A stretch of 63,079 nucleotides of DNA, filler included. It is 6 parts of 6 records of this genome, joined end to end, with 100 filler letters (N's around TTAATTAATTAA, not from the genome) between each part and the next. Parts side by side here need not be neighbours in the genome. Positions count along the whole stretch, not along the records: positions 57,007 to 63,079 come from SRR31156797_22841; 5 more parts are not named here. One strand, given 5' to 3'. The position numbers and the translations under genes are program-made. This document shows positions 5,032 to 63,079 of this stretch, one piece after another (position 1 is the first letter of the stretch; every line of letters begins with the position of its first letter). The notes beneath the pieces are model-generated. The model was not told the origin of the DNA. It saw nothing but the letters and a program-made list of their open reading frames with translations, and did no database searches.

Positions 5032-5086
5032 ATTAGTATTTACTCCTGTTTTATTAAAAATAATAATTATAGCAGCATGACTTACA

Positions 5087-5857
5087 CTATTTACTTAAAT
5101 TTTCTAAATATGCTTTTGTAAATAAAGAATCATCTAACTTCTCAGTTGAAATCCCCGATATTTGAACAAGTGTCTTATTTCCCTTTTCAAATTCATCTAC
5201 AAATAACATTTTTATTGCAACATATCTTTCATCAACTATAGTATATTTAGTGTAATAAGCTGTCTCCATTAAAGTCCCGCTTGCCGAATATGATTGCTCT
5301 TTTAGAGATAAATAATTATCTTTTCTTACGTAGAATACTTTTTTAGGATAATCAACATCTCTTTTTATTGCATTAACTTCCAGTCTGTAAACAGGAATTT
5401 TACCTAACATCTCTTCTGTAATCTTATCATTCCCGTTTTCATCTTTCACACCTTCATAGAGTTCAGTAGCTTTTTTCATCTCGAAATCATCACTATTTGC
5501 ATCTGTTCCGGCAATACTCTCATCTCTGTTAATGTGTTGAAATGTTCTTGTATTCCTTCTGTACATCCAGAAGTTATCCCCCATTCTCAGGTAACCGTTA
5601 CCCTTTTCATTTTCAGGTGCCAACATTACCAGTATAAAAGCATCGTCACTATCTCTTCTGTAATAGATCATTTCCGTTTGCTTAACACCTTGATTAACTT
5701 TTTTTTGAGTCATTACAACTTTTGCTCTTAGATCTGATGTCATCTCCTGCAATCTGTCAAATTCAGTTAACACTTCATGTATTGTCGGTATAGCAAATGT
5801 CGATGCTGCCATTAGCATAAACATTGCAATTCCAAGTAAACTCTTCTTAATTCTCAT
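5087..5857 (-). CDS. Outer-membrane lipoprotein-sorting (LolA-like) protein
   Basis: Signal peptide; APENEKGNGYL...WMY...GTD pattern; FTKAYL end; operon context. Confidence 0.8.
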   Translation of the reverse strand: MRIKKSLLGIAMFMLMAASTFAIPTIHEVLTEFDRLQEMTSDLRAKVVMTQKKVNQGVKQTEMIYYRRDSDDAFILVMLAPENEKGNGYLRMGDNFWMYRRNTRTFQHINRDESIAGTDANSDDFEMKKATELYEGVKDENGNDKITEEMLGKIPVYRLEVNAIKRDVDYPKKVFYVRKDNYLSLKEQSYSASGTLMETAYYTKYTIVDERYVAIKMLFVDEFEKGNKTLVQISGISTEKLDDSLFTKAYLENLSK

Positions 5858-5900
5858 TTGTAACTCCTCTCTAAAAAAATACTTTATTTTTATAATTTTC

Positions 5901-6044
5901 CTATTCTGCTTTTATTTGCAATTCTTCACTATCAATTTCCTTTTTTGTTGTCTCTGTATTACTCTGCTGCAAAGAAGCCGGAACTAACCAATCTCCTAAT
6001 AGAAACAATGAAACCAAAGCTTCTCCATCTATCTCTCTACTCAT
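5901..6044 (-). CDS. Small acidic protein, 47 aa (MSREIDGEALVSLFLLGDWLVPASLQQSNTETTKKEIDSEELQIKAE)
   Basis: Hand translation; AAGGAG RBS upstream of ATG; fills the gap inside the operon, same strand. Confidence 0.55.
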   Translation of the reverse strand: MSREIDGEALVSLFLLGDWLVPASLQQSNTETTKKEIDSEELQIKAE

Positions 6045-6069
6045 TTTTAACTCCTTTTATTTAAATCAA

Positions 6070-7854
6070 CTACTCATAATGTCTAAGCGCATCTGCCGGT
6101 GACATATTTGCTGCTCTTCTTGCCGGGAAAAATGCTGTAACAACTGCAATTATATGAATAACAATTACATTTGAAAGTATTCCCTCTATTGTAGGCAGGA
6201 AGTGCAAACTTTTATTTACAAGTAACATTCCTAAAGGATTTCCATCAGCATTAAAATTAATTCTACCTAACAGATACATCACTACAAATGCAAGAATTAC
6301 ACCTATTATTGATGAGAAAAGTGTTAGGAAAAAAGTTTCAAGTATAAATACATTTCTAACATCTCTCTTTTTCATACCTATTGCTCTTGATGTTCCTATC
6401 TCTCTGGTTCTCTCTTTAATAGTCATTCTAAGTGTATTGATTACCCCTATTAAAATTATAAAGAACAGAATTATTACAGCAAATAGTGTGATTAAATTCA
6501 GTGCTGATTCCAATTTCAAAATATCACTGGCACTTTCATACATTGAGTTTACATCTACTGTTACACCTTTATATTTCATTTTTGCAATATCTTTTAACTT
6601 TTTCTCCAGATCATCAGTTGATTGACTTCTTTCAAGCAATATCCATTCTGTAGCTAAGTGCTGATAAAGCTCATCACTGCTTTGAGGCACATATGCATCA
6701 CTATATCCATCTACAAGCTCAGGAAGATCGTTATAGTAAGTATCATAGAGTCTTTGTTCATTCATCAATACAACTCTATCTCCTGTTAATCCTTCAGGAT
6801 CAAATATTCCGTTTACTTTGTATTTTACTGTTGTATTTTTATCCTCTAATTTGTTTTTATAAGTAAATCTAAACTCATCATCTACTTTCAATCCTGTTTC
6901 ATCAGCTATGATTTTAGAGATTGCAACTCCGCCTTTTTTAGTAACTTCTGACATCTCGCCAGATACAAGCTTCATGTTATTAGTTATATAATCTATACTC
7001 TCCTCTGCACTTTTAAAACCAAGTACTGTAATTCTATCAGCCTCTTTTAAACTCTCAACTGTTTTAACTCTTCCAAATTTAATAGCTAAACCAGAGTTAA
7101 GAACTGAGTGAATTTTATCAGCATACATTTTTGCTTTTGACGGATCTTTTAGATTTACCTGAATTACACCGGTTTCAAAACTTCTATATGCCATCAGCTC
7201 TTTCAGATTATCTTTACTAACGAAAAGTACCGTGTCCATAAATATATTTGAGTTCTTTACAACTCCTACTATTGTTATTGTTGCAGCCTGCCATTGTCCA
7301 AATACATTTTGGAAACGTGCTTTAACATTATCTCCAACTTTAACATTTAATTTTTCAGCCTTTTGATCTGAGATAATTCCGGGATTAGCAACATCAGTTC
7401 GATTCATATCATCCCAGCTTCCCTCTACAACAGAGAACTGCTCCTGAAACTCTTTTTCTCTTTTCGCTGATACATTTCTATTCCCGCTAAAATCAAGTCC
7501 TACTATGACTATATTATCTGATCTTCCATTACCTATTGCTCTGGTAAATACTCCGATACTCTCTGAGTAACTCTCTACTTCTTCGTCAGGAATTATATCA
7601 TTTACTAATTTATCTATTCTCTCTTTATCTCTGAAAATTTGTGTCTGCGTTCCACCTTTTTCGTGAAAATCTATTGCTATATGACCAGCTACATAAGTAA
7701 CTATCTTATTAAACATTACATCTGATATTCCTTTTGAGAATGAGTTCGCAGTTACCAGTATAGTTACTCCTAGAGCAATTGCTATTCCCAAAAGCATATT
7801 TCTTCTCTTTTGCCTGAACAAGTTTCTCAGACTAAGATTTATTAAAAGTCTCAT
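6070..7854 (-). CDS. ABC transporter permease, FtsX/LolE/MacB type
   Basis: LRNLFRQKRR start; ERTREIGTSRAIGM; PARRAANMSPADALR; long periplasmic region. Confidence 0.9.
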   Translation of the reverse strand: MRLLINLSLRNLFRQKRRNMLLGIAIALGVTILVTANSFSKGISDVMFNKIVTYVAGHIAIDFHEKGGTQTQIFRDKERIDKLVNDIIPDEEVESYSESIGVFTRAIGNGRSDNIVIVGLDFSGNRNVSAKREKEFQEQFSVVEGSWDDMNRTDVANPGIISDQKAEKLNVKVGDNVKARFQNVFGQWQAATITIVGVVKNSNIFMDTVLFVSKDNLKELMAYRSFETGVIQVNLKDPSKAKMYADKIHSVLNSGLAIKFGRVKTVESLKEADRITVLGFKSAEESIDYITNNMKLVSGEMSEVTKKGGVAISKIIADETGLKVDDEFRFTYKNKLEDKNTTVKYKVNGIFDPEGLTGDRVVLMNEQRLYDTYYNDLPELVDGYSDAYVPQSSDELYQHLATEWILLERSQSTDDLEKKLKDIAKMKYKGVTVDVNSMYESASDILKLESALNLITLFAVIILFFIILIGVINTLRMTIKERTREIGTSRAIGMKKRDVRNVFILETFFLTLFSSIIGVILAFVVMYLLGRINFNADGNPLGMLLVNKSLHFLPTIEGILSNVIVIHIIAVVTAFFPARRAANMSPADALRHYE

Positions 7855-7868
7855 TTTCAGACCTCCTA

Positions 7869-8091
7869 TATTTAATTTAGTAATTCTTAAGCTTTGAACA
7901 AATTACTAATGCTTTTATAGTTATTTGTGAAAAAGCTTCTAGAATTTCAATTTCAATTTACTATTTAATTTAGAAAATCTTAAATTATTGAATGAATCAC
8001 CAATGCTTTAATGGTTATTCATGAAAAGAATTTTTTAGATTTTCGAATTCAATTATATTTAATTTAGTAATTTTTAAGCTTTATTTAATTT
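7869..8091. repeat. Imperfect AT-rich tandem repeat, 93-94 bp unit, about 2.4 copies
   Basis: TATTTAATTTAG recurs at 7869, 7962 and 8056 with collinear similarity downstream. Confidence 0.7.
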
Positions 8092-8098
8092 CAAAACT

Positions 8099-8154
8099 GT
8101 AGGGGTGTATTGATATACACCCAAATCGTTGGGCGTATGTCGATACGCCCCTAC
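8099..8154. repeat. GTAG-type REP doublet (REPIN-like)
   Basis: GTAG-GGGTGTAT-N4-ATACACCC, 8-nt spacer, GGGCGTAT-N4-ATACGCCC-CTAC. Confidence 0.8.
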
Positions 8155-8173
8155 GAGATTTTTTTTGGGGTGC

Positions 8174-9766
8174 TTAATCTCTTGAAATTGCATCAAGTGG
8201 CGTTATCTCACTAGCTACTTTCATTGGGTAAATCATCGCAATAAGAGTAACAACTAATAACTGAACGATACCTAAACCAATATCACTTAAAAGTATCACT
8301 GGTGTGAATTTATCTCCACCATACACTAGTTGTAAAATCTCATTTGTAGTTGTTATATTCATTGATGAAATGATAAGTACAAGAACAAGTCCACTTGCAA
8401 TTCCTAAACCACCAAAGAAAAATGATAATAGAGCAGTTTCATTTAGGAACATAAATCTGATAAATCTCTTTTTAGCTCCAATTGCTCTCATCATACCTAT
8501 CTCTGATGTTCTCTCAAGCGCAGTCATTGTAAGTGTATTAACTATAATTATTACCGCTACAAAGAATACGAACATAACAAACATAAATAATGCTCCTCTA
8601 ATAAGAGTTGCCATATTCCCAATAAATCCTGCTGCTTTTTTCCAGGTAATTGCTCTGGCTCCCTGTACAACTCTACCATCTTTGAACTCTTTATCATAAG
8701 AGATTTTCCCGCCAAAACCTCTTTCTTCAAGTTTTTGGTTTAATTTCTCAACTGCTTCTTCTCTATTTACACCATCTTTTAATCTGATAAATACCATGTT
8801 GTAAGCTCCAGCCTCAACATCAATATCTCCTTCATAAATTGATTCATCAACAGTGAAATCAATATCCTCAGTATTTATCGCTTCTCCGGTATCAATTGCA
8901 AACATATCCTCTTCAGCGAACATTGCATCAAGTGATTCTTCATCAAAAGTAAGCGCTTGCTCCTTCTCTTCATCTAATTCTACTGTTTCAGCAGCACTAA
9001 AATACCCCAGACAGTTTCTATATGATTCTATATCAGTAAACATAAATGTTCCCCAATAATTATTAAGTGCACGATATTTTATAATTCCTTTTACAGGTAA
9101 TCTAATATCTGTTGTACTGTTTGTTTCATTAAATCCCATGAAGACAAGATCCTCTTTATATGTCATCTCTTCTTCATTATCAAAATCTTCTTTGGCCTCT
9201 TTTGTAAAGTTATCTTTTATTACTCCGTCTTTTTCTGTAACTACCCAAAGTCCTGTAGAGTTATAAAAATCTTTACGACCTCCGGTACCTACTAAAACTC
9301 CCTTTGTTTCATTATCTATATAGTCTCCCTCTATTACCTCAATATTGTTAGGAAACATCTTAGCATATTCGTCAAAATCTACTCCCAGAATATAAGTATA
9401 TCCCGGTTCTCCCCCTTCTTCATTTAGAGCCATTGCCATGTTTTTCCCCACCGGTAAGAATTTCTCTATATAATCCTCTTCCAATAAGATGTCTTTTAGA
9501 TCTTTATAATTATAAATTGCTTCTATTGCTTCTCCCATCATCCCGAAAAGCACACTGTCTTGTGTTTGTTTATCAGAGATAAGAACTATATCTCCGGTAA
9601 ATCCATTGACTATATTTTTTTCAAGCCCTAAGTTCATACCTGAAATCACACTATTTCCAACAGTCATAAGTAAAGCACCTAGAAATAAGATTATTCCTAT
9701 TACAAAACTTTTCCCCTTATGCCTGAATATATTTCTCCATGCTATTTTTAATACAAGCATTTTCAT
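8174..9766 (-). CDS. ABC transporter permease, FtsX/LolE type
   Basis: AWRNIFRHK; ERTSEIGMMRAIGA; ITPLDAI. Confidence 0.9.
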   Translation of the reverse strand: MKMLVLKIAWRNIFRHKGKSFVIGIILFLGALLMTVGNSVISGMNLGLEKNIVNGFTGDIVLISDKQTQDSVLFGMMGEAIEAIYNYKDLKDILLEEDYIEKFLPVGKNMAMALNEEGGEPGYTYILGVDFDEYAKMFPNNIEVIEGDYIDNETKGVLVGTGGRKDFYNSTGLWVVTEKDGVIKDNFTKEAKEDFDNEEEMTYKEDLVFMGFNETNSTTDIRLPVKGIIKYRALNNYWGTFMFTDIESYRNCLGYFSAAETVELDEEKEQALTFDEESLDAMFAEEDMFAIDTGEAINTEDIDFTVDESIYEGDIDVEAGAYNMVFIRLKDGVNREEAVEKLNQKLEERGFGGKISYDKEFKDGRVVQGARAITWKKAAGFIGNMATLIRGALFMFVMFVFFVAVIIIVNTLTMTALERTSEIGMMRAIGAKKRFIRFMFLNETALLSFFFGGLGIASGLVLVLIISSMNITTTNEILQLVYGGDKFTPVILLSDIGLGIVQLLVVTLIAMIYPMKVASEITPLDAISRD

Positions 9767-9799
9767 TTCACCTCTTTTTATTATGAGTTCTATAAATCT

Positions 9800-10471
9800 T
9801 TACTCCACTACCAAACCATCTTTAATCTTAACAACTCTTTTTGCATATTTAAGTACATGTTCATCATGTGTTGAGAATATAAAAGTAGTTTTTTCTGTTT
9901 CGTTAAGTTTTAACATAAGTTGTAAAATATTATCCCCTGTTACTGAGTCAAGGTTTGCAGTAGGTTCATCTGCAAGGACAATATCCGGATTTGTAACCAG
10001 TGCTCTGGCAATTGCTACTCTTTGTCTCTGCCCTCCTGATAATTCTGCCGGTTTATGATCAATAAACTCTAATAATCCAACTTCTTCTATAAGTTTTTCA
10101 GCTCTTTTTTTGATTTCATTTTTACTGTGTTTTTTCATTAACAGTAATGGAAATTCTACGTTTTCTCTTACGTTTAATACAGGTACTAAGTTAAATGTTT
10201 GAAATATAAATCCAATTTTGTGTAATCTGATATCACTTATTTGATTATCATTTAGTGAGCTGATCTCCTGATTCCCTATTTTTATAACCCCGTCACTTGC
10301 TTTATCAATGCAGCCGATTATATTTAGTAGTGTTGTTTTACCACTTCCCGATGGTCCGATTACGCTTAAGAATTCCCCTTCACTAACTGTGAAATCTACT
10401 CCTCTTAAAGCATGAACCGTTGTTTTTCCTAGTGCATAGTTTTTCTTTAAACCTTTGATTTCAATTAGCAT
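9800..10471 (-). CDS. ABC transporter ATP-binding protein, LolD-like
   Basis: GPSGSGKT, LSGGQRQR, LADEPTANLD, STHD. Confidence 0.95.
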   Translation of the reverse strand: MLIEIKGLKKNYALGKTTVHALRGVDFTVSEGEFLSVIGPSGSGKTTLLNIIGCIDKASDGVIKIGNQEISSLNDNQISDIRLHKIGFIFQTFNLVPVLNVRENVEFPLLLMKKHSKNEIKKRAEKLIEEVGLLEFIDHKPAELSGGQRQRVAIARALVTNPDIVLADEPTANLDSVTGDNILQLMLKLNETEKTTFIFSTHDEHVLKYAKRVVKIKDGLVVE

Positions 10472-10591
10472 TTTTTCCTCCTTGCTATGATAAATGTTAT
10501 TAAATACTTCTGCTTATTTAGGCTTCCCTATTAGTTGTTCTGCATCCTTATCCCTATTCCTTTCAAAATCAAAAAAAATTTGACCGTATAA

Positions 10592-10605
10592 ACCAACCAG
10601 TTGGT
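10592..10605. promoter_or_regulatory. Palindromic operator candidate upstream of the ABC operon
   Basis: ACCAAC-CA-GTTGGT dyad in AT-rich intergenic DNA; resembles TetR-type sites. Confidence 0.4.
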
Positions 10606-10979
10606 CTATAGACTTATTCTACATCATATTTATTTTTTTGTAAACTATTACATTTGTAATTACTTTTAATCTTCAATACACTATAACTTCATTCAATTAT
10701 ACACATATATTTTTATACTCTTTTGATTATACTTGCTATTTTACAAATTAATTATACATGAGATAACATAAATATGCTTCAATTGGCAGGTATAATGTGA
10801 AATCCTATGGTAAGATGCAAATTACTTTGGTAAAGAGCAATCATAATCTGCACTAACTCCTTTCACTAATAAATTACATTATTTTTCGCTATTTTGTAAT
10901 CAGGACTAATCCCTAAAATTGATCTTTTTTTCCATAAGGAATACTCCCTAGCTATAATGAATGTTGTAAATCTTGGCAC

Positions 10980-11079
10980 NNNNNNNNNNNNNNNNNNNNN
11001 NNNNNNNNNNNNNNNNNNNNNNNTTAATTAATTAANNNNNNNNNNNNNNNNNNNNNNNNNNNNNNNNNNNNNNNNNNNN
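10980..11079. other. Artificial contig spacer
   Basis: 44 N + TTAATTAATTAA (stops in six frames) + 44 N. Confidence 0.98.
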
Positions 11080-11290
11080 AATCCCCGTACTTTTATACAT
11101 CAAATCGGCGTAATTGAAAACAGTCGGCACGTTCCCAAATCGACCTATTGAACCCAAACCTGCAATCAGATATAATCCGCTATCAATTTTCATCGGGCGT
11201 TTTGATTAATGAGTAATAACAAAATCTTGTCACCCATTGCGGCACGCTTGATTAACGGTTCGGCGAGCGGTTATTTGGGATTCCGCTACA

Positions 11291-13042
11291 ATGCTTAACG
11301 GGGGTTTCATGGAAAAGCTTCTTGATATTGAAGAAATGACAAAAGGCGAAAAGTTTTCTCGTCGTCAATTCCTGACGTTATTGGGGGCTTTAGGTATTGT
11401 CGGTTCCGTCGGCGGCCATGCAGGTCCGGCGCTGTCCGGACAAAAGGTTCTTATTACCGAAGAGATGATGATCGGCGCTGAAAAAATAGCCGGGCTGGAA
11501 TTCACGGGAGATGAAAGACAACGGGTTATTAAAAGGCTGAGTAGAAATATGAAAGCCTATGAAGCCGTCCGCAACCTTCACATGCCTAATCGGACGCCTT
11601 TATCCTTGTATTTTAATCCAATTCCGCCCGGAAAGACTATTGAAAAAAATGAAACTGTTTTCAATCCGAGTACTGCCAGTGTTAAAAAACCGGACAGGAT
11701 TGAAGACGCCGCTTTCTTTTCCATCACGCAGTTGGCTGAACTCATCAGGACAAAACAAATCAGTTCCATGGAACTTACCCGCATGTACATTGCCCGCTTA
11801 AAAAAGCACGATCCCGGGTTGAACTGCGTGGTAAACCTGACCGAGGAATTGGCCCTGAAGCAGGCCCGGCGCGCGGACCAGGAAATTAAAAGCGGAAAGT
11901 ACAAGGGGCCCTTACACGGCATTCCCTGGGGAGTAAAGGATATATTCGCGACCAGGGACTATCCGACAACCTGGGGGGCGGAGCCCTATAAAGACCGCGT
12001 GCTTGATTTTGAAGCCACGGTTGTGCGCAGGCTGGAAGAGGCCGGGGCGGTATTGGTTGCCAAATTGGCCTTGGGCGAGCTTGCCACCGGAGATAAATGG
12101 TACGGCGGCAGAACCCGCAATCCCTGGAAACCGAGCCAGGGGTCGGGCGGTTCTTCGGCCGGGTCTGCCTGCGCCGTAGCAGCCGGTCTGGTCGGCTTCT
12201 CCATTGGAACGGAAACCAATGAATCCCTGGTTGGACCGGCCATTGTCTGCGGCGTTTCGGGACTCAGGCCCACGTTCGGCAGGGTCAGCCGCTACGGTGT
12301 GATGACGGTTAGCTGGAGCTACGATAAAATAGGCCCAATGTGTCGCAGCGCGGAAGATTGCGCGCTGGTGTTTAATGCCATATATGGACCCGACAACCTT
12401 GATCGTTCAGTATTGGACATGCCTTTCAGTTGGGATGATGCCAATATAAATCCATCAAACATCAGAATCGGTTATATAAAGCAAATCTTGAACCTCAAGC
12501 CTGAAAACAAGTTCGCGGCCGCTGTTTTGAAGGCCCATCGGGACGCCTTTAAAAAGCTCGACGCGTTGGGCTTCAAAATGGTTGAAATCAAAGACGTTCC
12601 TTTTGAATACCTGGACAAGCTTATCAAAAGTTCATCATTCGGACTGCTGGTTGAAGCGGCCGCGGCCCATGATGAACTAACTTTGAGCAATCAAGATGAA
12701 ATGCTTAAACACAGTAATTGGGAGGACAGGTTTCTAGGCGCCAGGTATGTCCCGGCGGTTGAATATATACAGGCCAACCGCGCCAGGACGCTTTTGATTG
12801 AAGAAATAGACCGGATTTTTGATGGTGTGGACGTTGTGTTGGGCAGAATTGTTTTATCAGCGATTCAATCCAACATCACCGGCCATCCCGAACTTGTTAT
12901 TCCCCATGGTCTGAACTCGGCGGGAACGCCTAAAAGCATAATTCTGACCGGTAAATTATTCGGAGAAACCGAATTGTTGTCCGTGGCCCACAAATACCAG
13001 GCCGCCACTAATTATCATGAACTGCACCCTCCTCTTGAATAG
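11291..13042 (+). CDS. Amidase-signature family enzyme with twin-arginine signal
   Basis: SRRQFL Tat motif; GPLHGIPWGVKD; GGSSAGSA; GLRPTFGRVSRYG. Confidence 0.9.
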   Translation: MLNGGFMEKLLDIEEMTKGEKFSRRQFLTLLGALGIVGSVGGHAGPALSGQKVLITEEMMIGAEKIAGLEFTGDERQRVIKRLSRNMKAYEAVRNLHMPNRTPLSLYFNPIPPGKTIEKNETVFNPSTASVKKPDRIEDAAFFSITQLAELIRTKQISSMELTRMYIARLKKHDPGLNCVVNLTEELALKQARRADQEIKSGKYKGPLHGIPWGVKDIFATRDYPTTWGAEPYKDRVLDFEATVVRRLEEAGAVLVAKLALGELATGDKWYGGRTRNPWKPSQGSGGSSAGSACAVAAGLVGFSIGTETNESLVGPAIVCGVSGLRPTFGRVSRYGVMTVSWSYDKIGPMCRSAEDCALVFNAIYGPDNLDRSVLDMPFSWDDANINPSNIRIGYIKQILNLKPENKFAAAVLKAHRDAFKKLDALGFKMVEIKDVPFEYLDKLIKSSSFGLLVEAAAAHDELTLSNQDEMLKHSNWEDRFLGARYVPAVEYIQANRARTLLIEEIDRIFDGVDVVLGRIVLSAIQSNITGHPELVIPHGLNSAGTPKSIILTGKLFGETELLSVAHKYQAATNYHELHPPLE

Positions 13043-13086
13043 AGGGCCTTATAGATGGGGGCGGCGTGCGAACCCGCCGGTTGCTT

Positions 13087-14079
13087 TTAATCCGGGAGTC
13101 CGGTAATAAGGCATTGACGGGTCATGGCTTCACGGATTTCAGGCCCGGAAGCATTGCTGCCGCTCATCTGAACGGCCACGTTACGGCCGGCCAGCCTGTC
13201 TTTGATCTTGAAAGCGGCCCTCAGGCAGGATCCGCCCGAGCCTTCGGCCAGGTTACGTGTATGATGCGCGGCCAAAGCAATGCCTTCGTAAAGTTCTTCT
13301 TCCGACAGAAGGACAAAGTCGTCGAGCAACTCCCTGTAGATTGAAAAGGTGACTTCATAGGCCGTTCCCGTGGCGAATCCTCCGGCAAAGGTGTTGTTGG
13401 GCGAAGTTACTATTTGGCCGGCCTTCCACGATTTATAAGCAGCCTGAGACATTTCCGCCTGGACGGCAATGACTTCAATCTTTGGATTAATACTTTTCAA
13501 AACCGTTATTGCCGCGGCAACCTCGCTGCCGGCGCCGATGGGAACAAGCATGACTTCCAAATCCGGAACCTGCTCAATTATTTCAATAAATTCCGTCCCC
13601 ACGCCGTTTATCAGGTGAGGTTCATTGGCCGGATGAACAAAGTACAGTCCTCTTTCTTCGACCAGCTCTTCCACCTTTCGGCCGGCTTCCTCAAAATCAA
13701 CGCCGTACTCAATCAGCTCGGCGCCTGCGTCCTTAATAGCCGCGACCTTTAACGGGTTGGAGTTTTCCGGCACTACAACAACCGCGTTTAAACCGAACAT
13801 TCCGGCGCTCGCGGCCGTTGAAACGCCGTGGTTGCCGGTTGAATAAGTAATAACGCCCTTAACGCCGTCATTTGACAGATTATGCATCAGGTTTATTCCG
13901 CCCCTGATTTTGAACGTACCGGTAGGGTTAAGGTTTTCGTGCTTGATATATACCCGGGCGCCGATATTTCGATCCAGGCTTTTATAATTTCTTAGTGGAG
14001 AAGGTTTTAAATAAGGCCGTAATACCTCCCTGGCGCCCATAACGCGTCTTAGAGAAATCGACTCGCTTATGTTTTTCAT
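13087..14079 (-). CDS. PLP-dependent threonine/serine dehydratase family protein
   Basis: KHENLNPTGTFKIRG (PLP lysine); STGNHG; PIGAGS. Confidence 0.9.
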   Translation of the reverse strand: MKNISESISLRRVMGAREVLRPYLKPSPLRNYKSLDRNIGARVYIKHENLNPTGTFKIRGGINLMHNLSNDGVKGVITYSTGNHGVSTAASAGMFGLNAVVVVPENSNPLKVAAIKDAGAELIEYGVDFEEAGRKVEELVEERGLYFVHPANEPHLINGVGTEFIEIIEQVPDLEVMLVPIGAGSEVAAAITVLKSINPKIEVIAVQAEMSQAAYKSWKAGQIVTSPNNTFAGGFATGTAYEVTFSIYRELLDDFVLLSEEELYEGIALAAHHTRNLAEGSGGSCLRAAFKIKDRLAGRNVAVQMSGSNASGPEIREAMTRQCLITGLPD

Positions 14080-14197
14080 AATTGTCCTCCTTTAAGGCGG
14101 TAAAAAATATTAACATACCGCAATTGTATATGCTCTTCATTTGACGGGCCGTCCTATAACCGGCATCCGTGGTTATAAATACGCTAAACGGGCTTGA

Positions 14198-14238
14198 CAT
14201 AACAGATACAGTTTAACTAAAATTGAACCATAACAGTT
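14198..14238. promoter_or_regulatory. Candidate MocR-family operator
   Basis: CATAACAG direct repeat at 14198 and 14229 plus ATACAGTT, overlapping a TTGACA, between the divergent dehydratase and regulator genes. Confidence 0.5.
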
Positions 14239-14260
14239 ATAAACTGCGGCGGAGATTACC

Positions 14261-15706
14261 ATGTCCGGCAACACCGCTCAGCAGAGCGATTTTTTATACA
14301 AGAAACTGGCCCTCGACATTGAAGGCAAGATCAGGCGGGGAGAATTCAGATCCGGAGAAAAGCTGCCTTCGCTAAGGGCCCTTCATAAAAAGCTCGGTTT
14401 GTCCCTGGCAACCGTGTATCAGGCTTATATGGAACTGGAAGCAAGCGGTTTGGTGGAAGCTCATCCTAAATCCGGCTTTTATGTAAAAGTTGAAAGAATA
14501 TATAACAAGCCTCCGCCGCGGTATTTGAAACTTATAACCAGGCCCAGGCAGGTTAGACTGGATGCCATCACCGCGGACGTGGTAAATGCGTCCCTCAATC
14601 CCGGGTTTGTTCCATTGGGGTCGTCCGCCCTGTCGCCGGACCTTTTACCGCATAAGCACCTGGGCCGGATAATGAAGGAGATTCTAAGTCAGAACGCTAA
14701 AAAACAACTGAATTATGCGCCTCCTGACGGCGATCCCGAACTTAGAAGAATGATCGCAACCAGGCTTTTAGGCATTCTGCCGGGCGCGACCGGTGAGGAT
14801 GTATTGATCACCAACGGCTGCATGGAGGGAATAGCCCTGGCCTTGAACATGTTAGTAAAGCCCGGCCAAATAGTGGCCGTGGAATCGCCGACCCATTTCG
14901 GCTTTCTCCAATTGTTAAAAGCCATGGGGCTTTATGCGGTCGCCGTACCCACCGATCCCAGACACGGACTTGTTCCCGAAGCCCTGGCCAAGGTCCTGGA
15001 CGAGTATGATGTCAGAGCGTGCTTGACTATACCCAACTTTCATAACCCACTGGGCGCCTTAATGCCCGACGAGCGCAAAAAGGCCCTGGTTCGGCTGATA
15101 AATGACCGGGGCGTTCCCTTGATTGAAGACGACATATACGGAGATATGCATTTTGATCCACGCAGGCCGGGGTTATTGAAGAGTTATGACCGCCGGGACC
15201 TGGTTATAACCTGCTCGTCAATATCCAAAGTGCTTGCGCCCGGCTTCCGGGTCGGCTGGTGTCTGCCCGGCAAAAGGTTTTATGACGAAATGCTCAAGTT
15301 AAAAACTGCTTTTTCCATGGCTGCGCCGACGTTGCAACAATCCGTTATCAGGCGTTATATGGCCGGCGGAGAATTCGATCGTTATCTTCGCACACTGAGA
15401 ACCAGGCTCAAACACATGACGGTTGAAACGGCCATGGCCGTTCAGAGATATTTTCCGGCCGACATCAGGTTCACGGTTCCTGAAGGCGGCAATATGCTTT
15501 GGGTGGAACTTCCGACAAATATTGACGGATTGGAGGTATATCAGAAAGCCCTTTCAGCAGGAATTTCCATCGTGCCGGGCACGGCCTTCACTATTTCAGG
15601 CGGATATAATAATTTTATCCGAATCTCCGCCACTACTCCTTTTGATGAAAGGATCGAAAAGGGATTGATGATTTTAGGAAGTATTGTCAAGGAATTCGGC
15701 AAATAA
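14261..15706 (+). CDS. MocR/GabR-type regulator (GntR HTH + PLP aminotransferase-like domain)
   Basis: GEKLPSLRAL winged HTH; IEDDIY; SISKVLAPGFRVGW. Confidence 0.93.
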   Translation: MSGNTAQQSDFLYKKLALDIEGKIRRGEFRSGEKLPSLRALHKKLGLSLATVYQAYMELEASGLVEAHPKSGFYVKVERIYNKPPPRYLKLITRPRQVRLDAITADVVNASLNPGFVPLGSSALSPDLLPHKHLGRIMKEILSQNAKKQLNYAPPDGDPELRRMIATRLLGILPGATGEDVLITNGCMEGIALALNMLVKPGQIVAVESPTHFGFLQLLKAMGLYAVAVPTDPRHGLVPEALAKVLDEYDVRACLTIPNFHNPLGALMPDERKKALVRLINDRGVPLIEDDIYGDMHFDPRRPGLLKSYDRRDLVITCSSISKVLAPGFRVGWCLPGKRFYDEMLKLKTAFSMAAPTLQQSVIRRYMAGGEFDRYLRTLRTRLKHMTVETAMAVQRYFPADIRFTVPEGGNMLWVELPTNIDGLEVYQKALSAGISIVPGTAFTISGGYNNFIRISATTPFDERIEKGLMILGSIVKEFGK

Positions 15707-18687: not shown

Positions 18688-18787
18688 NNNNNNNNNNNNN
18701 NNNNNNNNNNNNNNNNNNNNNNNNNNNNNNNTTAATTAATTAANNNNNNNNNNNNNNNNNNNNNNNNNNNNNNNNNNNNNNNNNNNN
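18688..18787. other. Artificial contig spacer
   Basis: N-run with TTAATTAATTAA. Confidence 0.98.
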
Positions 18788-29652: not shown

Positions 29653-29752
29653 NNNNNNNNNNNNNNNNNNNNNNNNNNNNNNNNNNNNNNNNNNNNTTAA
29701 TTAATTAANNNNNNNNNNNNNNNNNNNNNNNNNNNNNNNNNNNNNNNNNNNN
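29653..29752. other. Artificial contig spacer
   Basis: N-run with TTAATTAATTAA. Confidence 0.98.
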
Positions 29753-49845: not shown

Positions 49846-49945
49846 NNNNNNNNNNNNNNNNNNNNNNNNNNNNNNNNNNNNNNNNNNNNTTAATTAATTA
49901 ANNNNNNNNNNNNNNNNNNNNNNNNNNNNNNNNNNNNNNNNNNNN
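49846..49945. other. Artificial contig spacer
   Basis: N-run with TTAATTAATTAA. Confidence 0.98.
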
Positions 49946-56906: not shown

Positions 56907-57006
56907 NNNNNNNNNNNNNNNNNNNNNNNNNNNNNNNNNNNNNNNNNNNNTTAATTAATTAANNNNNNNNNNNNNNNNNNNNNNNNNNNNNNNNNNNNNN
57001 NNNNNN
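56907..57006. other. Artificial contig spacer
   Basis: N-run with TTAATTAATTAA. Confidence 0.98.
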
Positions 57007-58200
57007 ACGTTGGGCCACGTCATATATCAGTATCTGCAGACGCCAGGCAGCAGAAGGGAAACCATGTATCGCCGCATGCGCTCCATCCTGACCCAGAGCA
57101 GCTTTACTGTTCCCGAGCCCTTAAGAAAAATTGCCGAAATAAAGGATTTTTCACTTTATGTCAGCACGACCATCGATTCTCTGATGGAAGAAGCTATCAA
57201 CCAGGCCCGTTTCGGGGGAGAAAGCCGGACCGGTGCTCTGGTATACACCTTCAACGACGCCAAGGATTTACCCTGCGAAGTAAAGGATTTGGACCGGCCG
57301 ACGGTTTTTCACCTGTTCGGCCGCGTCTCGTCCCAACCCGACTACGTACTTACGGATGAAGACACGCTGGAATTCATCCATTCCCTGCAGTCGGAAACCC
57401 ACCGGCCTCACCTTCTTTTTGACGAACTAAAAAGCCACCATCTGCTTATACTCGGAAACGGCTATTCCAATTGGCTGGCCCGTTTTTTCATCCGTACGGT
57501 CAGAAACGAGCGTTTGACCGTGCCGGGCGACAGGGAGGCCATATTGGCCGGCGACTCGGTCAGCAGTGATGAAAGCCTGGTTCTGTTTTTAAGTTCTCCA
57601 TTAAGTTATGGAACCAAGGTTTATGAATCGGGAGGAGCGGTCGAGTTCATTGACGAGTTGTATTCCCGTTGGCGGGAGTTGAATCCCGAAGATGAGGAAG
57701 AAGCCCCCATGGCTCCGGTTTCGGTTGAAGTTGAAGAGTCGGGCATGGAGTCCGGAGCCATATTTTTGAGTTATGCCAGCGAAGACGTGGATATAGTCGA
57801 ACAAGCCAAGTTCGATCTTGAAGAGGCCGGGCTGGACGTGTGGTTTGACAAGCGGCGGCTGGAGCCGGGCGACGACTATGATTTGAAGATAAAACGCAAC
57901 GTCAGGAAGTGCGCCCTGTTCTGCCCCTTTATTTCCCGGAGCACGGAACAAAGACTGGAAGGATATTTCAGGCGTGAATGGAGGTACGCCCTGGACAGGT
58001 CCCTGAACATAGATGAATCCATCCCATTTATACTTCCGGTGGTCATAGACGACACCGCTCCGTACACCGGGCGGGTTCCGGAAGAATTCAAGAGGCTTCA
58101 ATGGACGAGCATGAAGGGCGACCGGCTCCCGGAAAGTTTCATTAAAAGAATTGTTCAGCTAGTCAGGGACTATCGCAAGCGCGAGCGAGGATACCTATGA
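57007..58200 (+). CDS. SIR2-like (degenerate) + TIR domain protein, 5'-truncated
   Basis: SIR2_2-like YVSTTID, VFHLFG, DYVLTDED, LLILGNGY; acidic linker; TIR IFLSYASED, WFDKRRLEPGDD, YFRREW; frame open from the contig edge. Confidence 0.85.
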   Translation, partial: TLGHVIYQYLQTPGSRRETMYRRMRSILTQSSFTVPEPLRKIAEIKDFSLYVSTTIDSLMEEAINQARFGGESRTGALVYTFNDAKDLPCEVKDLDRPTVFHLFGRVSSQPDYVLTDEDTLEFIHSLQSETHRPHLLFDELKSHHLLILGNGYSNWLARFFIRTVRNERLTVPGDREAILAGDSVSSDESLVLFLSSPLSYGTKVYESGGAVEFIDELYSRWRELNPEDEEEAPMAPVSVEVEESGMESGAIFLSYASEDVDIVEQAKFDLEEAGLDVWFDKRRLEPGDDYDLKIKRNVRKCALFCPFISRSTEQRLEGYFRREWRYALDRSLNIDESIPFILPVVIDDTAPYTGRVPEEFKRLQWTSMKGDRLPESFIKRIVQLVRDYRKRERGYL

Positions 58201-61200
58201 TCGAAAGTAAAACCGGATTGGGGGCCGCGGCCGACATCGGGGCCGATAATCCCTGGCTGGGCCTGACCGCGTACACCGAGGAAGCCAGCGGTTATTTTTA
58301 CGGTCGCGACAGGGAAACAAGCGATACTTACCGTCTGGTCAAGCGTGAAACCCTGACGGTGCTTTTCGGTCAATCCGGATTGGGCAAGACATCGCTTTTA
58401 AACGCCGGCCTTTTCCCGCGTTTGCGACAGAACGATTTTTTACCCGTCTATATACGCTTTGATTATTCGGACGACAGCCCGGATTTGATTAAACAGATAA
58501 AATCCTCAATTCGGGACCACATCGTCCTATATGACGTGGACGCCCCGCCGCCCAATGACGATGAAACATTGTGGGAATACTTTCACCGGCGTGAAACGGA
58601 TTTTTGGAGCGCCAAAAACAGATTATTGAACCTGGTGCTGGTTTTCGACCAGTTTGAAGAGATTTACACCCTGGGCCGATCGGGCGAATTGAACCAACAG
58701 CGAAGCCGGGCTCTTGTATCGGAGCTGGCCGACCTGATCGAGGGCCGGCCTTCCGAAAACGTTCGGAAGCGCTTTGAAGACGATCCCGAGGCGGCGCGCG
58801 CCTTTTCATTTGAAAAGCAGAATTTCAAGGTCATTTTCAGTTTGCGCGAGGACTTTCTCCCGCATTTGGAAAGTATGCGCGAGCAAATCCGATCCGTTAT
58901 GCGCAACAGGCTGAGGCTGACCCGTATGAACGGGCTTCAGGCGCTCCAGGCGGTCATTGAACCCGGCGGGGACATTATCGACGAGGCCACCGCCGTCCGG
59001 CTGGTTTTGTTTGTAGCCGGAGCCGCTGTTGAATTTACGATATCCGGCGACGGGGAAGATCAATTAAACGAACTTGAAGTGGAGCCGGCCCTGTTAAGCG
59101 TTGTTTGCCGTGAATTAAACAATATCAGGATACTCAGGGGCGACGATTTTATCACGGTCGATCTGTTGGCCGGCACAAAATCGGAAATCCTGAGCGACTT
59201 TTACGAAAGGTCGGTAACGGATCTGCCGGCCGGGGTTCGCGTTTTCACCGAAGAACGTCTTTTGACAAAATCCGGTTACAGGGACAGTGTGGCCCTGGAA
59301 GAAGTATTGGAGGTTGAAGGCGCGTCTTATGAGGTCGTGGACACGCTGGTCAACAGGCGTTTGTTAAGAATTGAGGAGAGATTCGGAGTCAAGCGGGTTG
59401 AACTCACCCACGACATACTTACCGAAGTAATTCAAACCAGCCGGGACAAGCGGCGGGAGGACGAGCGCCTGGCCGCGGAAACAAGGCAGGCCGAGGAGCT
59501 CAGGAAAAAGCTCTGGCGGGCGCGTATGGCCGTGGGTTTTTTCGCCGTGTTGTTAATCCTTATGATCGGCGCCCTGGTGACGGCGTACATGGCCAGAAAC
59601 GAGGCCAAGGCCGCATTGCAAAAAGTGGCTGCCACAAAGGCCGGGACCAATGCCCTGGCAGGACACAATGCCAGACTGAGATACGATTGGGGCGCGGCGC
59701 TATTACATTATCAAAGATCCCTGAAGCAGGCCGACAATTTGAGCGCGCGGATCGGCCTGAGCGACCTTCTGAATTCCTATATGCCGCAGATAGCGAAGTT
59801 CAAAACCGATTTCCCCATAATAGCCGCCGGATTTTCCAAAAGAGGACTGCCAGTGGTTTTTACCAGGGGAAACAGGGAAATCAATATTATTGACGCGGCT
59901 TCCTGGAAAAGGACCGGCCAAATACCAACCCATGATTCCACAACGGTTGCAGCCGCTTACAACAGCGACAAGGGCCTGCTGGCCTATACTGGAGCCGGAG
60001 GAACCATCCACGTTCGGGAATTGGGGAAAAAGGAATCCGGAAAGGTTATAGAAGGAAGAGGGCCCAAGACGACCGCCCTGGCCTTCAGCCATGACGGCGC
60101 CTTTCTTATGGTCGGGTATGCGGACAATTCGGCGGAATTAATGCAGGCGTCCGACGGGAAAAAAATCGAGGAATACACCGCCTTTCCGTCGCCTCCGATC
60201 CTTTTGGCTTTTTCTCCTGAAAATGATGCTTTCGCGGCGGGATTCGAAAACGGGGACGTTATTTACTGGAATATAAAAACCGGGGGCGATGAGGACGCGT
60301 TCAAGGGCCATAATGGAAAAATCGTTTCCCTGTCCTTTGATTCCAGTGGACGGAAGCTGGTTTCCACTGCCGAAGACGGCCGGGCGATCGTGTGGGACTG
60401 CCGGAGCCGTTTGATGGTTTCGTCATTTTTGAAGGATCCGGCCAGGGGATCGGTTGTGCACGCCGGTTTTTCAAACAGCGGCCTGTTTTTTGTCACCAGG
60501 GAAAAAAGCATTTCGGTTTTCGATTATCAAACCGAACCGTGGACTCTATTAACCGAAATAGGAGTCAAACCGGAAACAGCCGGCCGAACCGTTATCAGCC
60601 CGGGCGGCCTTTTGCTGATGTCTTACAAGCCTGCCGGCGCCGCGGCTGTATGGCAAACCAGCGGGTTGGCCTCGATCAGGGGGGCTTTTAGAAAAGTCGA
60701 TGCCAAATCGGTTTCTCTTTGGGGCGATCTTTGTGCCGTTATTTCGGAAAAAGGCGAATTAAAGATCTTTAATCTTGAAAGTAAAAGCAACGACGGAAGC
60801 GAGAGGAAAGAAATATTCAGGTTTACCCCGGACAGCGCCAAAACCGCTATTGAATTCACGGCCGTATCCCGGGGAAACGACTACCTTGCTTTTGCCAGGT
60901 CGGACAACGCCATTATATTGTGGCACGAACCCACGGGCGACGTAAGTCTTCTTGAACGCCAGGACAAGCAGCGCCTTTCAGCCAAAGGTCCGTCATACAA
61001 TTTTACCGAGCGCGATAAAAGAATGGCTAAAATGGCCCGCCTTCGTGATATAAAGCCCGCGGCCCTGGCTTTCGATCCTGCCGGTGCGCGCATGGCCGCG
61101 GTTAGCGAAGCCGGGACAATCCGTATATGGGATCTAAAATCCCGTTCACAGTCGCCGTCAATTATAAGAAGGCAGACAACCGGGGTCAGGTGCGCGGCCT

Positions 61201-63079
61201 TTGGGCCGGGCGGCCTGATAGCGGTGGGCGAGGCTGATGGGGATGTCATTATTCATGATTCATCCGGTGTGAAAGAAGCCTCGGTGCTGAAAGGGCATAA
61301 AGGGCCGGTTCTTTCAATCGATATCAGTCCCGACGGCAAGATGCTTGCTTCGGCATCCACGGACAATACGGTTCGCGTATGGGACGTGGAAGCAAAAGCG
61401 CCCCTGGCTGTGTGCACGGGACACTCGGACGCAGTGAACAAGGTTGTTTTCAGCAAGTCCGGGAAGATTTTCATAACAGGCTCGGATGACGGAACAATTC
61501 GATTTTGGGACATTCAAGACCAAGGAATGCTGGCCCTGATCAAGGCAGGAACGGCGGTTAAGACCCTATCCTATGACAATCGGGCCGGGAATGGCGAACA
61601 ACTGTACATGGCAGGCGCCGACAGCACGGTTTTCAGGCGGAAACTTTACTTGCTCTCACCTGTTCCGGAAAAGAATCTTTTTACACTTTCCCTTTATAAC
61701 TATCCATTTGAACTGGACGCCGGCGATCAACCGGTCTTGATAGAGCCCTGGAGATTTTCCCAGTTAAGGCTTGAAGCAGCGCTTGCCGGGGCGCTAAAAG
61801 GAGCGCCGGAAGGAGGCAAGCCTTTTGCGGGGCTTCTGAAAAATGAAATAGCCCGGGCCCGGAAAAAGATGGAAATCGAGGCCCTGAGGGAGGCGGTGAT
61901 AAATCGGAACGCCGAGCGTGTCGCCAATTTGATTGAAAAAGGAATAGATGCGGACACGGTTTTCATGAACGGACACACGCCGCTGACATTGGCTTTGAAC
62001 AAGGGGTACGGCGATATCACCGCCGTTTTGATAAATAAAGGGGCGGACGTCAATTATATACCCGTCCGAGGCAAAGGGCCTTTGGAAACGGCCATCGGCA
62101 AGGGGCGCGGCGGGGATGTTAACCAATTATTAAAAGCGGGCGCGGATGCCGCCGCCATCTTTGGCCGGGCCTTGGACATGGAGGACCACAAAACAATCAA
62201 TCTCCTTATGAGCAGCGGTCTGGACCCGGATGAAACCGACCACAGAGGGTACACCCGTCTTCACAAGGCTGCCCGGGAAGGAGACGTATCGCGTATAAAA
62301 ATTCTTTTGTCTCTGGGCGTGGATATTGAAAAAAAAGGGCCGGACGGTTCATCGGCCCTCATGTATGCGGTCGGCCGGGGGCATAAAAGCGCGGCTGAAT
62401 TTCTGATCAATAACGGCGCAGACCTGGAGGCAAAAAACAAGCCCGGACAATCGCCCTTGAATCACGCCGCAGCCATGGGACAGGAAGAAATGGTTAAATT
62501 ATTATTGGTAAAAGGGGCGGATCTGTTAAGCACGGACAGACGCGGCCGGACGCCCCTAGTAACCGCGGTTCGTCACGGTCGGACCGATATTATCAAAACC
62601 TTGCTGCTCATCCCGACGCAGGTTAATGTTCTTGACCGTAATGGTTGGAGCCTGCTGATGCATGCGGCCCGGGGAAACAGGATTAAAACAGCACGATACC
62701 TTATTGAGACCGGAGCAGACGTAAACGCTATAAGCCGACGCGGGGATTCCGCTCTTCTTTTGGCCTGTAAATATGGTTCAAAAAATTTGGTCGAATTGCT
62801 CTTAAACAAGGGGGCCGATATTCAGGTCAAAGACGAAAACGGATGGACGCCTTTAATGCACGCGGCAGGAAATGGCGCCCATGAATCGATGCTCCTTTTA
62901 CTCGATAATGGCGGAAATCCTGGCGATAAAACCCGATCTGGAGAAACGCTGCTCATGCTTGCGGCCCGGTCGGGCAGTCTGAAGACTGTTGAAATACTTC
63001 TTCGCAAAGAGGCCCGCCTGGACGAACAAGACCGTTTAGGCTGGACGCCGCTGCATCATGCGGCTGCCGCGGGCAAGGA
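58197..63079 (+). CDS. nSTAND1-type NTPase-TM-WD40-ankyrin protein, at least 1627 aa, 3'-truncated
   Basis: Hand translation with no stop: NPWLGL..FYGRD, Walker A GQSGLGKT (58368), Walker B LVFDQFEE, SLREDF, VELTHD, TM ~59526-59594, WD40 ~59810-61640, ankyrin ~61880-end; ATGA overlap with the upstream stop. Confidence 0.92.
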   Translation, partial: MIESKTGLGAAADIGADNPWLGLTAYTEEASGYFYGRDRETSDTYRLVKRETLTVLFGQSGLGKTSLLNAGLFPRLRQNDFLPVYIRFDYSDDSPDLIKQIKSSIRDHIVLYDVDAPPPNDDETLWEYFHRRETDFWSAKNRLLNLVLVFDQFEEIYTLGRSGELNQQRSRALVSELADLIEGRPSENVRKRFEDDPEAARAFSFEKQNFKVIFSLREDFLPHLESMREQIRSVMRNRLRLTRMNGLQALQAVIEPGGDIIDEATAVRLVLFVAGAAVEFTISGDGEDQLNELEVEPALLSVVCRELNNIRILRGDDFITVDLLAGTKSEILSDFYERSVTDLPAGVRVFTEERLLTKSGYRDSVALEEVLEVEGASYEVVDTLVNRRLLRIEERFGVKRVELTHDILTEVIQTSRDKRREDERLAAETRQAEELRKKLWRARMAVGFFAVLLILMIGALVTAYMARNEAKAALQKVAATKAGTNALAGHNARLRYDWGAALLHYQRSLKQADNLSARIGLSDLLNSYMPQIAKFKTDFPIIAAGFSKRGLPVVFTRGNREINIIDAASWKRTGQIPTHDSTTVAAAYNSDKGLLAYTGAGGTIHVRELGKKESGKVIEGRGPKTTALAFSHDGAFLMVGYADNSAELMQASDGKKIEEYTAFPSPPILLAFSPENDAFAAGFENGDVIYWNIKTGGDEDAFKGHNGKIVSLSFDSSGRKLVSTAEDGRAIVWDCRSRLMVSSFLKDPARGSVVHAGFSNSGLFFVTREKSISVFDYQTEPWTLLTEIGVKPETAGRTVISPGGLLLMSYKPAGAAAVWQTSGLASIRGAFRKVDAKSVSLWGDLCAVISEKGELKIFNLESKSNDGSERKEIFRFTPDSAKTAIEFTAVSRGNDYLAFARSDNAIILWHEPTGDVSLLERQDKQRLSAKGPSYNFTERDKRMAKMARLRDIKPAALAFDPAGARMAAVSEAGTIRIWDLKSRSQSPSIIRRQTTGVRCAAFGPGGLIAVGEADGDVIIHDSSGVKEASVLKGHKGPVLSIDISPDGKMLASASTDNTVRVWDVEAKAPLAVCTGHSDAVNKVVFSKSGKIFITGSDDGTIRFWDIQDQGMLALIKAGTAVKTLSYDNRAGNGEQLYMAGADSTVFRRKLYLLSPVPEKNLFTLSLYNYPFELDAGDQPVLIEPWRFSQLRLEAALAGALKGAPEGGKPFAGLLKNEIARARKKMEIEALREAVINRNAERVANLIEKGIDADTVFMNGHTPLTLALNKGYGDITAVLINKGADVNYIPVRGKGPLETAIGKGRGGDVNQLLKAGADAAAIFGRALDMEDHKTINLLMSSGLDPDETDHRGYTRLHKAAREGDVSRIKILLSLGVDIEKKGPDGSSALMYAVGRGHKSAAEFLINNGADLEAKNKPGQSPLNHAAAMGQEEMVKLLLVKGADLLSTDRRGRTPLVTAVRHGRTDIIKTLLLIPTQVNVLDRNGWSLLMHAARGNRIKTARYLIETGADVNAISRRGDSALLLACKYGSKNLVELLLNKGADIQVKDENGWTPLMHAAGNGAHESMLLLLDNGGNPGDKTRSGETLLMLAARSGSLKTVEILLRKEARLDEQDRLGWTPLHHAAAAGK

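Follow-up and report, generated by a model that had tools for sequence, protein, structure and literature searches.

Among the closest described counterparts of the gene pair considered here are the nSTAND1 counter-invader systems, whose NTPase clade was named by Kaur, Iyer, Burroughs and Aravind within the Death-like/EAD-coupled systems (eLife, 2021; PMC8195603; PF20703). In the sections of that article considered here, these systems join a STAND switch to variable, superstructure-forming repeats and to effectors such as TIR, which a neighbouring gene can provide. We describe a locus that belongs to the same NTPase clade by hidden Markov model (HMM) and follows the same logic, in the last of the six joined pieces of a 63,079-nucleotide window (positions 57007-63079; record SRR31156797_22841). 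It consists of gene 1, which encodes a SIR2-like domain and a TIR domain in one protein, and gene 2, which encodes an nSTAND1 NTPase followed by a predicted transmembrane helix and a long repeat region. Whereas the nSTAND1 systems in the same sections of PMC8195603 are coupled through Death-like or EAD adaptors, the pair has no EAD; searches with Pfam, PADLOC and NCBIfam found no adaptor family in either protein, and the arrangement by which the conflict systems of PMC8195603 are recognised, an N-terminal effector or a shared EAD/Death-like adaptor, is absent from the locus. On balance we favour the view that the pair represents part of a two-gene module of conflict or immune type that is widespread, and in which a receptor-like STAND protein works with a cytoplasmic pseudo-SIR2/TIR partner.

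The comparison extends to several other systems. The Avs/AVAST proteins, and especially Avs5 (SIR2-STAND; 9nc9, 9jap), share with the pair the STAND switch and a SIR2 fold, which falls in one structural family with theirs (Foldseek E-values 1.4e-9 and 3.2e-8), and the oligomerisation-driven activation of Avs is the mode that would be expected here as well. Avs proteins are, however, single cytosolic polypeptides with an active N-terminal effector, whereas in the pair the effector is separate, the SIR2 domain is catalytically degenerate, enzymatic activity is likely to reside in the TIR domain, and a transmembrane helix comes before the sensor. The locus does not encode a single polypeptide of effector, STAND module and cytosolic sensor, and no Avs model was among the PADLOC matches. 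Type I Thoeris (a ThsB TIR protein with a ThsA SIR2-SLOG protein) also combines a TIR domain with a ThsA-type SIR2 fold, but the pair fuses both folds in one protein, lacks SLOG and the equivalents of ThsA Asn112 and His152, and has a STAND NTPase as its obligatory partner. A separate ThsB TIR with a signal-binding effector was not found: the PADLOC match to ThsB covers 40 residues only (E 9.7e-4), and neither a SLOG nor a Macro domain was detected in the pair with Pfam or PADLOC. The PCTM and TIR-ParA receptor-like systems, for which their authors propose the sensing of periplasmic or envelope perturbation, come close in layout, since the parts of that work considered here describe a cytoplasmic NTPase, a transmembrane segment, variable periplasmic repeats and an upstream effector gene; they differ in that their NTPase is ParA, of the SIMIBI class and not of the STAND AAA+ type, and in their partner genes (10.64898/2026.10.19.760177).

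No paper naming a SIR2-like/TIR plus nSTAND1 pair was found in the literature searched. The sections of PMC8195603 considered here make no mention of a SIR2-like/TIR partner or of a helix between NTPase and sensor, and the supplementary tables of that article may list such neighbourhoods. The term "SIR2" is absent from PMC7159879 (Kaur et al. 2020); PMC12803255, a survey of STAND sensors from 2026, uses "transmembrane" only once, to expand TM in a figure legend; and a 2025 preprint on TIR signalling (10.64898/2025.12.03.692087) excludes Avs-type and standalone TIRs and, in the portion considered, does not describe the pair. PADLOC and NCBIfam gave no named system for either protein, only domain-level TIR and ankyrin matches, and the statement in a preliminary description of this DNA that no characterised system has this architecture stands as far as these two resources go. 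Animal Toll-like receptors have a repeat ectodomain, a single transmembrane helix and a cytoplasmic TIR output. The pair may work alike, a comparison that implies no whole-protein homology; it differs from them in having its TIR domain on a separate protein, a STAND ATPase between sensor and TIR, and an enzyme-type Glu that is kept. What sets the pair apart from known STAND-plus-TIR conflict systems is best described as the combination of a predicted membrane-spanning layout, a separate effector gene and a pseudo-SIR2 domain of adaptor-like character.

The gene pair and its conservation

Metagenome contigs were scanned with an alignment of 31 members of the gene 1 family, which yielded 80 loci at 38-50% identity, and a downstream partner was sought by tblastn, the query being STAND residues 1-450. 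In 72 of these loci gene 1 is followed immediately, and on its own strand, by a STAND homologue (42-59% identity); in the other eight only 2-151 bp are left after gene 1, so that every one of the 72 informative loci carries the pair. The co-occurrence whose absence the preliminary description had named as refuting its proposal is thereby strongly borne out. That description had also noted that the stop of gene 1 and the start of gene 2 overlap in an ATGA, and the open reading frames (ORFs) confirm it. A STAND ORF of 100 aa or more was obtained from 71 of the 72 loci, and its start was assignable in 70; the genes overlap by 4 bp in 40 of these 70, and the gap is between -8 and +20 bp in 60. Since the same 4-bp overlap recurs in 40 of 70 related loci, the overlap in the window is more than chance, and the two genes are supported as a conserved, translationally coupled pair. 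Both belong to large families: at E <= 1e-3, and among 8,000 candidates scored for each, gene 1 has 4,309 database matches and gene 2 has 4,614.

Paraburkholderia caribensis MBA4 (NZ_CP012748.1, a 2.55-Mb replicon) carries the pair at 29.5% identity, again with the 4-bp overlap. In this distant module (L082:4831-10344) the SIR2_2/TIR_2 gene is preceded closely by a TPR-S/MAP3K_TRAF_bd gene, and its nSTAND1 partner gene encodes 660 aa with a hydrophobic helix; none of the three is annotated in the PLSDB gene table. This copy offers a cultivable entry point for tests.

Neither gene is whole in the window, a point missed in the preliminary description. Five spacers (10980-11079, 18688-18787, 29653-29752, 49846-49945 and 56907-57006) split the window into six pieces with GC contents, in order, of 0.313, 0.477, 0.387, 0.353, 0.307 and 0.531. 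Positions 57007-63079 are a separate 6,073-bp contig with 53.1% GC, against 30.7-47.7% in the other five pieces, and both genes are fragments on it, gene 1 being cut at its 5' end and gene 2 open at its 3' end. As 57007 is the first base after a spacer, the upstream sequence of the window is not usable as a neighbourhood of the pair. The spread of GC across the pieces, from 0.307 to 0.531, may reflect more than one source organism.

A few candidates were set aside. A supposed SIR2-TIR/STAND fusion at locus L029 (computed gap -3213) is instead two separate ORFs (9746-11329 and 11339-14551), and the gap of -457 computed at L039 is probably an artefact of the same kind. P0180, a protein of 1,066 aa with nSTAND1, SIR2_2 and a P-loop, was considered as a Rosetta-stone fusion and was not used as evidence, its domain order fitting read-through of a tandem array; it is either such a read-through of tandem modules or a genuine fusion, and its third domain is a second P-loop. 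A distant TIR-only match (L001; 34% identity over residues 237-324), obtained by scanning contigs with the truncated gene 1 protein, has no context value.

Domains of the two proteins

Gene 1 corresponds to residues 64-460 of P0003, a full-length protein of 460 aa, with 3 differences in 397 residues (99% identical), and about 63 N-terminal residues are absent from it. The start "TTG 57010" of the ORF list is a mechanical call. Proteins of the family are about 460 aa long, and the AlphaFold2 (AF2) model of full-length P0003 (predicted local distance difference test, pLDDT, 90.8) has two domains with a disordered linker between them.

Pfam SIR2_2 matches gene 1 residues 50-184 with an E-value of 5.3e-11 and 43.2 bits, where the cut-off is 24.5. 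The best Foldseek matches of the SIR2-like domain are ThsA (7uxt_B, E 4.9e-11), Avs5 SIR2, KomC, DSR2 and SPARSA SIR2; the domain has the Rossmann-like fold of the defence-type SIR2 NADases of the ThsA/DSR2/Avs5 type. In a profile alignment to SeThsA, TTNYD stands against sTTfD and YKLHG against yhlLG, and we take the SeThsA motifs to be the counterparts of those that hold N112 and H152 in ThsA. The profile match, made against PDB sequences, is weak by sequence alone (E 0.35) and was used only jointly with the fold match, of which the same chain is the top hit. Across 113 relatives the column of the catalytic Asn holds Thr in 99, Ser in 13 and Gly in one, and that of the catalytic His holds Leu in 83, Phe in 24, Val in three, Tyr in two and Cys in one, with neither Asn nor His in any of them; the pair of catalytic residues that marks the defence-type NADases (ThsA N112, H152) is missing. 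In Bacillus cereus ThsA, according to the part of the source considered here, the substitutions N112A and H152A each abolish NAD+ cleavage, and neither mutant binds NAD+ (PMC7272460). Since both residues are replaced in 113 of 113 relatives, the SIR2-like domain is very probably not a sirtuin-type NADase. It is nevertheless still highly conserved and must have some function, and we propose that it serves as an adaptor or oligomerisation element.

The TIR domain aligns with those of SPARTA TIR-APAZ and AbTIR. The Glu of its GYFRREW motif is kept in all 113 relatives and aligns with the Glu counted as residue 77 of SPARTA TIR-APAZ 8j8h, which we take to be the catalytic residue. With a TIR fold and a conserved Glu of the kind found in enzymatic TIR domains, this domain is the likely enzyme of the pair, its activity being putative. 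The preliminary description had regarded TIR and SIR2 alike as NAD+-consuming domains; the constant Glu agrees with this for the TIR, while the loss of Asn and His tells against it for the SIR2.

In gene 2 the match to the Pfam nSTAND1 family (PF20703) begins at residue 19; it has an E-value of 5.1e-30 and scores 105.8 bits, above the gathering score of 27.1. The 18 residues before the match hold no N-terminal effector and no EAD, and Pfam found no effector domain in the protein, in agreement with what had been said of it earlier. All of the families that had been named for an HMM search (SIR2_2, TIR_2, nSTAND1, WD40 and Ank) were matched in Pfam. Partner proteins were compared in a sample of 44, made up of the window copy and 43 complete proteins. 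All 44 have an nSTAND1 match, and Walker A residues G58, S60-K64 and S66 (G-x-SGLGK-x-S) and Walker B residues D151-E155 (DQFEE) are invariant in the 44 and in a set of 51 sequences. The AF2 model of residues 1-530 (pLDDT 87.3) contains the nucleotide-binding domain (NBD), the helical part and the winged-helix part, and in fold it most resembles Cdc6/Orc1, the archaeal ATPases 2fna and 2qen, plant resistosomes and NLRP7. The best full-length relative, P0123 (1,888 aa), has NTPase, helix, propellers and ankyrin repeats in the same order; its identity to the window protein is 70% across the first 460 residues but only 39% overall.

Just after the NTPase module, all 44 partners have exactly one strongly hydrophobic segment of 21-24 uncharged residues, with a mean Kyte-Doolittle value of 1.6-2.7 and basic residues on both sides. 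Lys and Arg in the 15-residue flanks amount to 244 on the N side against 148 on the C side, a moderate bias that fits a cytoplasmic NTPase and a C-terminus on the outside. In the AF2 model an unbroken helix, residues 407-511, runs through the hydrophobic segment, and the confidence drops after about residue 470. Because the helix sits between NTPase and sensor, the repeats are predicted to lie on the other side of the membrane, and the sensor is probably extracytoplasmic. The term "membrane-anchored", which the preliminary description had used for the STAND protein, understates this predicted layout.

That sensor is variable. WD40 repeats occur in 9 of the 44 partners; among eight partners viewed singly, most have weak TPR-like repeats or no Pfam match, and one has Sel1 repeats; and database homologues carry sensors that are ankyrin-only, PD40, or leucine-rich repeats (LRR) with a C-type lectin domain. 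The gene 2 family in this respect matches the pattern of a conserved switch with a swappable, fast-diverging sensor, which the sections of PMC8195603 considered here give as the usual signature of STAND conflict proteins. P0129, P0163 and P0169, with an NTPase 53-54% identical, have LRR and a C-type lectin domain after the helix instead of WD40, an ectodomain reminiscent of animal surface receptors.

One complex prediction was made, of STAND residues 1-440 with the full partner, the family alignments not being used as input. It gave an interface score (ipSAE) of 0.51 (runs 0.51, 0.53 and 0.51) against 0.16 for the best of three controls, which the tool rates as "weak support"; at least 90% of contacts agree between the runs, and the partner has a pLDDT of 76. 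The score passes the tool's mark, which is reached by 51 of 78 solved complexes and by 2 of 108 mismatched pairs; the tool warns, however, that among passes at or below 0.60 the wrong outnumber the right, save where the guess was a likely one to begin with. Taken with the strict gene linkage, the prediction lends weak support to binding, a small rise in its odds and not proof. The split receptor/effector pair of the preliminary description is in this sense partly supported: the conserved, coupled genes and the effector-free STAND protein speak for it, the predicted complex only weakly so.

Proposed mechanism and alternatives

We suggest the following course of events. The fast-evolving ectodomain, which is probably periplasmic, would sense a ligand or a disturbance of the envelope; the signal would pass through the long transmembrane helix and lead to nucleotide-dependent oligomerisation of the STAND protein; the oligomer would then collect copies of the partner, recruiting the TIR protein in trans, with the pseudo-SIR2 domain as adaptor or oligomerisation scaffold; and the TIR domains would assemble and cleave NAD+, which would result in its depletion or in a signal derived from ADP-ribose (ADPR). 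Such an ADPR-derived signal could be read by the product of a TPR-S/cyclase gene that is present in about one fifth of the loci. What we infer in this scheme is the topology, the binding of the two proteins, the sequence of steps, the nature of the trigger and a role in immunity; domain content, the loss and retention of catalytic residues, the conservation and coupling of the genes, the conserved hydrophobic helix and the variability of the sensor are observed.

Several points weigh against this interpretation and should be set beside it. No experiment on any member of the family was found in the literature searched. The window copy is incomplete at both ends. The pseudo-SIR2 domain keeps many invariant charged residues (D120, R131, D150, D182, D202 and R226) and may hold an unrecognised ligand-binding or catalytic role. 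The complex score falls in the weak range of the tool, and the prediction gives no interface and does not indicate a docking domain. The predicted topology draws on hydrophobicity and a moderate charge bias only, with charges on both flanks, and the cytoplasm is where most WD40 and ankyrin repeats occur. The defence-island context is thin as well, since in a PADLOC scan of 125 neighbouring ORFs no family matched more than 2; the viral contigs gave 28 pattern matches, none of them a relative; and the search of 72,556 plasmid records brought up a single full-length relative.

The roles of the two proteins could also be the reverse of those proposed, in a Thoeris-like order in which the TIR protein is both sensor and signal generator and the membrane STAND protein is the effector, forming through its helices a membrane-damaging oligomer like the plant resistosomes. 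We consider this unlikely. It would account for a STAND protein that has no enzymatic effector, whose sole invariant extra feature is the transmembrane helix (44 of 44) and whose fold matches include resistosomes, and many Thoeris effectors are membrane-spanning, as stated in the portion of the preprint considered here (10.64898/2025.12.03.692087). Yet domain searches found no SLOG, Macro or other nucleotide-sensing domain in the STAND protein, its C-terminal region varies in the manner of a sensor and not of an effector, and the partner has no obvious sensing domain except the pseudo-SIR2. To about the same degree we doubt that the module lies outside immunity altogether, as an outside-in receptor for envelope stress, development or kin recognition whose TIR product feeds into second messengers, for instance by way of TPR-S/cyclase. 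The receptor-like layout would suit such a role, as would the TPR-S plus cyclase gene in 8 of 37 loci, the TPR-S gene upstream in P. caribensis, the sparse defence-gene neighbourhood and the chromosomal location of the module, none having been found in viral contigs. On the other hand, sensor swapping among close NTPase relatives suits an arms race better than housekeeping signalling, and the combination of STAND, TIR and hypervariable repeats is a hallmark of conflict systems in the sections of PMC8195603 considered here.

It is also conceivable, if quite improbable in our judgement, that the helix does not span the membrane and that the STAND protein is an ordinary cytosolic, Avs-like sensor, the helix being an element that serves oligomerisation or sits at the membrane periphery. 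In favour of this are the typically cytoplasmic location of WD40 and Ank repeats and the position of the segment inside the continuous AF2 helix 407-511, where confidence falls after about residue 470. This is hard to reconcile with 21-24 uncharged hydrophobic residues between basic ones in 44 of 44 proteins, and with ectodomain variants made of LRR plus C-type lectin, PD40 or Sel1, folds that are common outside the cytoplasm and mostly exported.

Returning to the reading of a receptor-like STAND protein with a cytoplasmic partner, we raise a broader proposal more tentatively, as possible but short of probable: the pair may represent a large class of bacterial outside-in innate immune receptors, in which periplasmic repeats would detect cues from phages, from competitors or from a breached envelope, at genome entry or ahead of it, and would signal through the single transmembrane helix to a STAND oligomer and, via the pseudo-SIR2 adaptor, to the TIR domain. 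Those bacterial STAND/NLR-like sensors that have been characterised (Avs, bNACHT) recognise phage proteins within the cytoplasm. If the proposal is true, bacterial NOD-like receptor (NLR)-like immunity would also watch the envelope or periplasm, through a family with thousands of members; the module would be a functional hybrid of Toll-like and NOD-like receptors; and the dead SIR2 would be a natural case of a pseudo-enzyme recruited as the adaptor of a TIR enzyme.

Feature coordinates and neighbouring genes

Table 1. Features of the gene pair, of the adjoining spacer and of the recurrent neighbour gene. Positions are those of the window unless a locus is named.
Feature	Position	Strand	Remarks
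Contig-joining spacer	56907-57006	.	N x44, TTAATTAATTAA, N x44; 5 identical spacers in the window; GC 0.531 after, 0.307 before
Pseudo-SIR2/TIR gene (gene 1)	57007-58200	+	5' end cut by contig edge; frame 1 open to TGA 58198-58200
SIR2-like domain	57007-57687	+	N-terminal Rossmann strand missing in window copy; Pfam SIR2_2 at 57154-57558
Asn-equivalent position, Thr	57169-57171	+	window copy
His-equivalent position, Phe	57316-57318	+	window copy
TIR_2 domain	57760-58125	+	Pfam, gene 1 residues 252-373, E 4.5e-19
Putative catalytic Glu of TIR	57976-57978	+	motif GYFRREW
ATGA start/stop overlap	58197-58200	+	translational coupling
nSTAND1-TM-WD40-WD40-Ank gene (gene 2)	58197-63077	+	ATG 58197-58199; 3' end open (end of window and contig)
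STAND NTPase module	58251-59456	+	NBD, helical and winged-helix parts
Walker A	58368-58394	+	GQSGLGKTS, residues 58-66; Lys64 at 58386-58388
Walker B	58635-58661	+	VLVFDQFEE, residues 147-155
Single predicted transmembrane helix	59526-59594	+	residues 444-466 (23 residues), inside one long helix, residues 407-511
Two WD40 beta-propeller regions	59859-61646	+	residues ~555-830 and 953-1150; predicted extracytoplasmic
Ankyrin repeats	62184-63077	+	residues ~1330-1627; cut by window end
TPR-S/cyclase gene	L014:13908-15791; L024:5291-7243; L029:14524-16401; L054:14572-16467; L015:1605-3467 (-)		

The only recurrent neighbour family is a protein of about 620 aa that combines TPR-S (PF20308) with an adenylate/guanylate cyclase domain (Guanylate_cyc). 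Its gene is found in 10 loci in total. Where the STAND gene is complete and at least 600 bp follow it, which holds for 37 loci, 8 have the gene, mostly as the next one downstream. Its product could accordingly be the reader of a TIR-made nucleotide signal in a subset of the systems; no text on TPR-S was found in the literature searched. When the neighbours of the 80 loci were clustered, every family other than TPR-S/cyclase was confined to 4 loci or fewer. In 4 loci (L022:11079-12134, L025:15063-16100, L031:11668-12798 and L049:5534-6055) a protein of about 350 aa, which Pfam does not match, is encoded 400-480 bp beyond the STAND gene on its downstream side. At L015, two tandem nSTAND1 genes (4915-8064 and 8133-9428) follow one SIR2-TIR gene, which suggests duplication of the sensor within the module.

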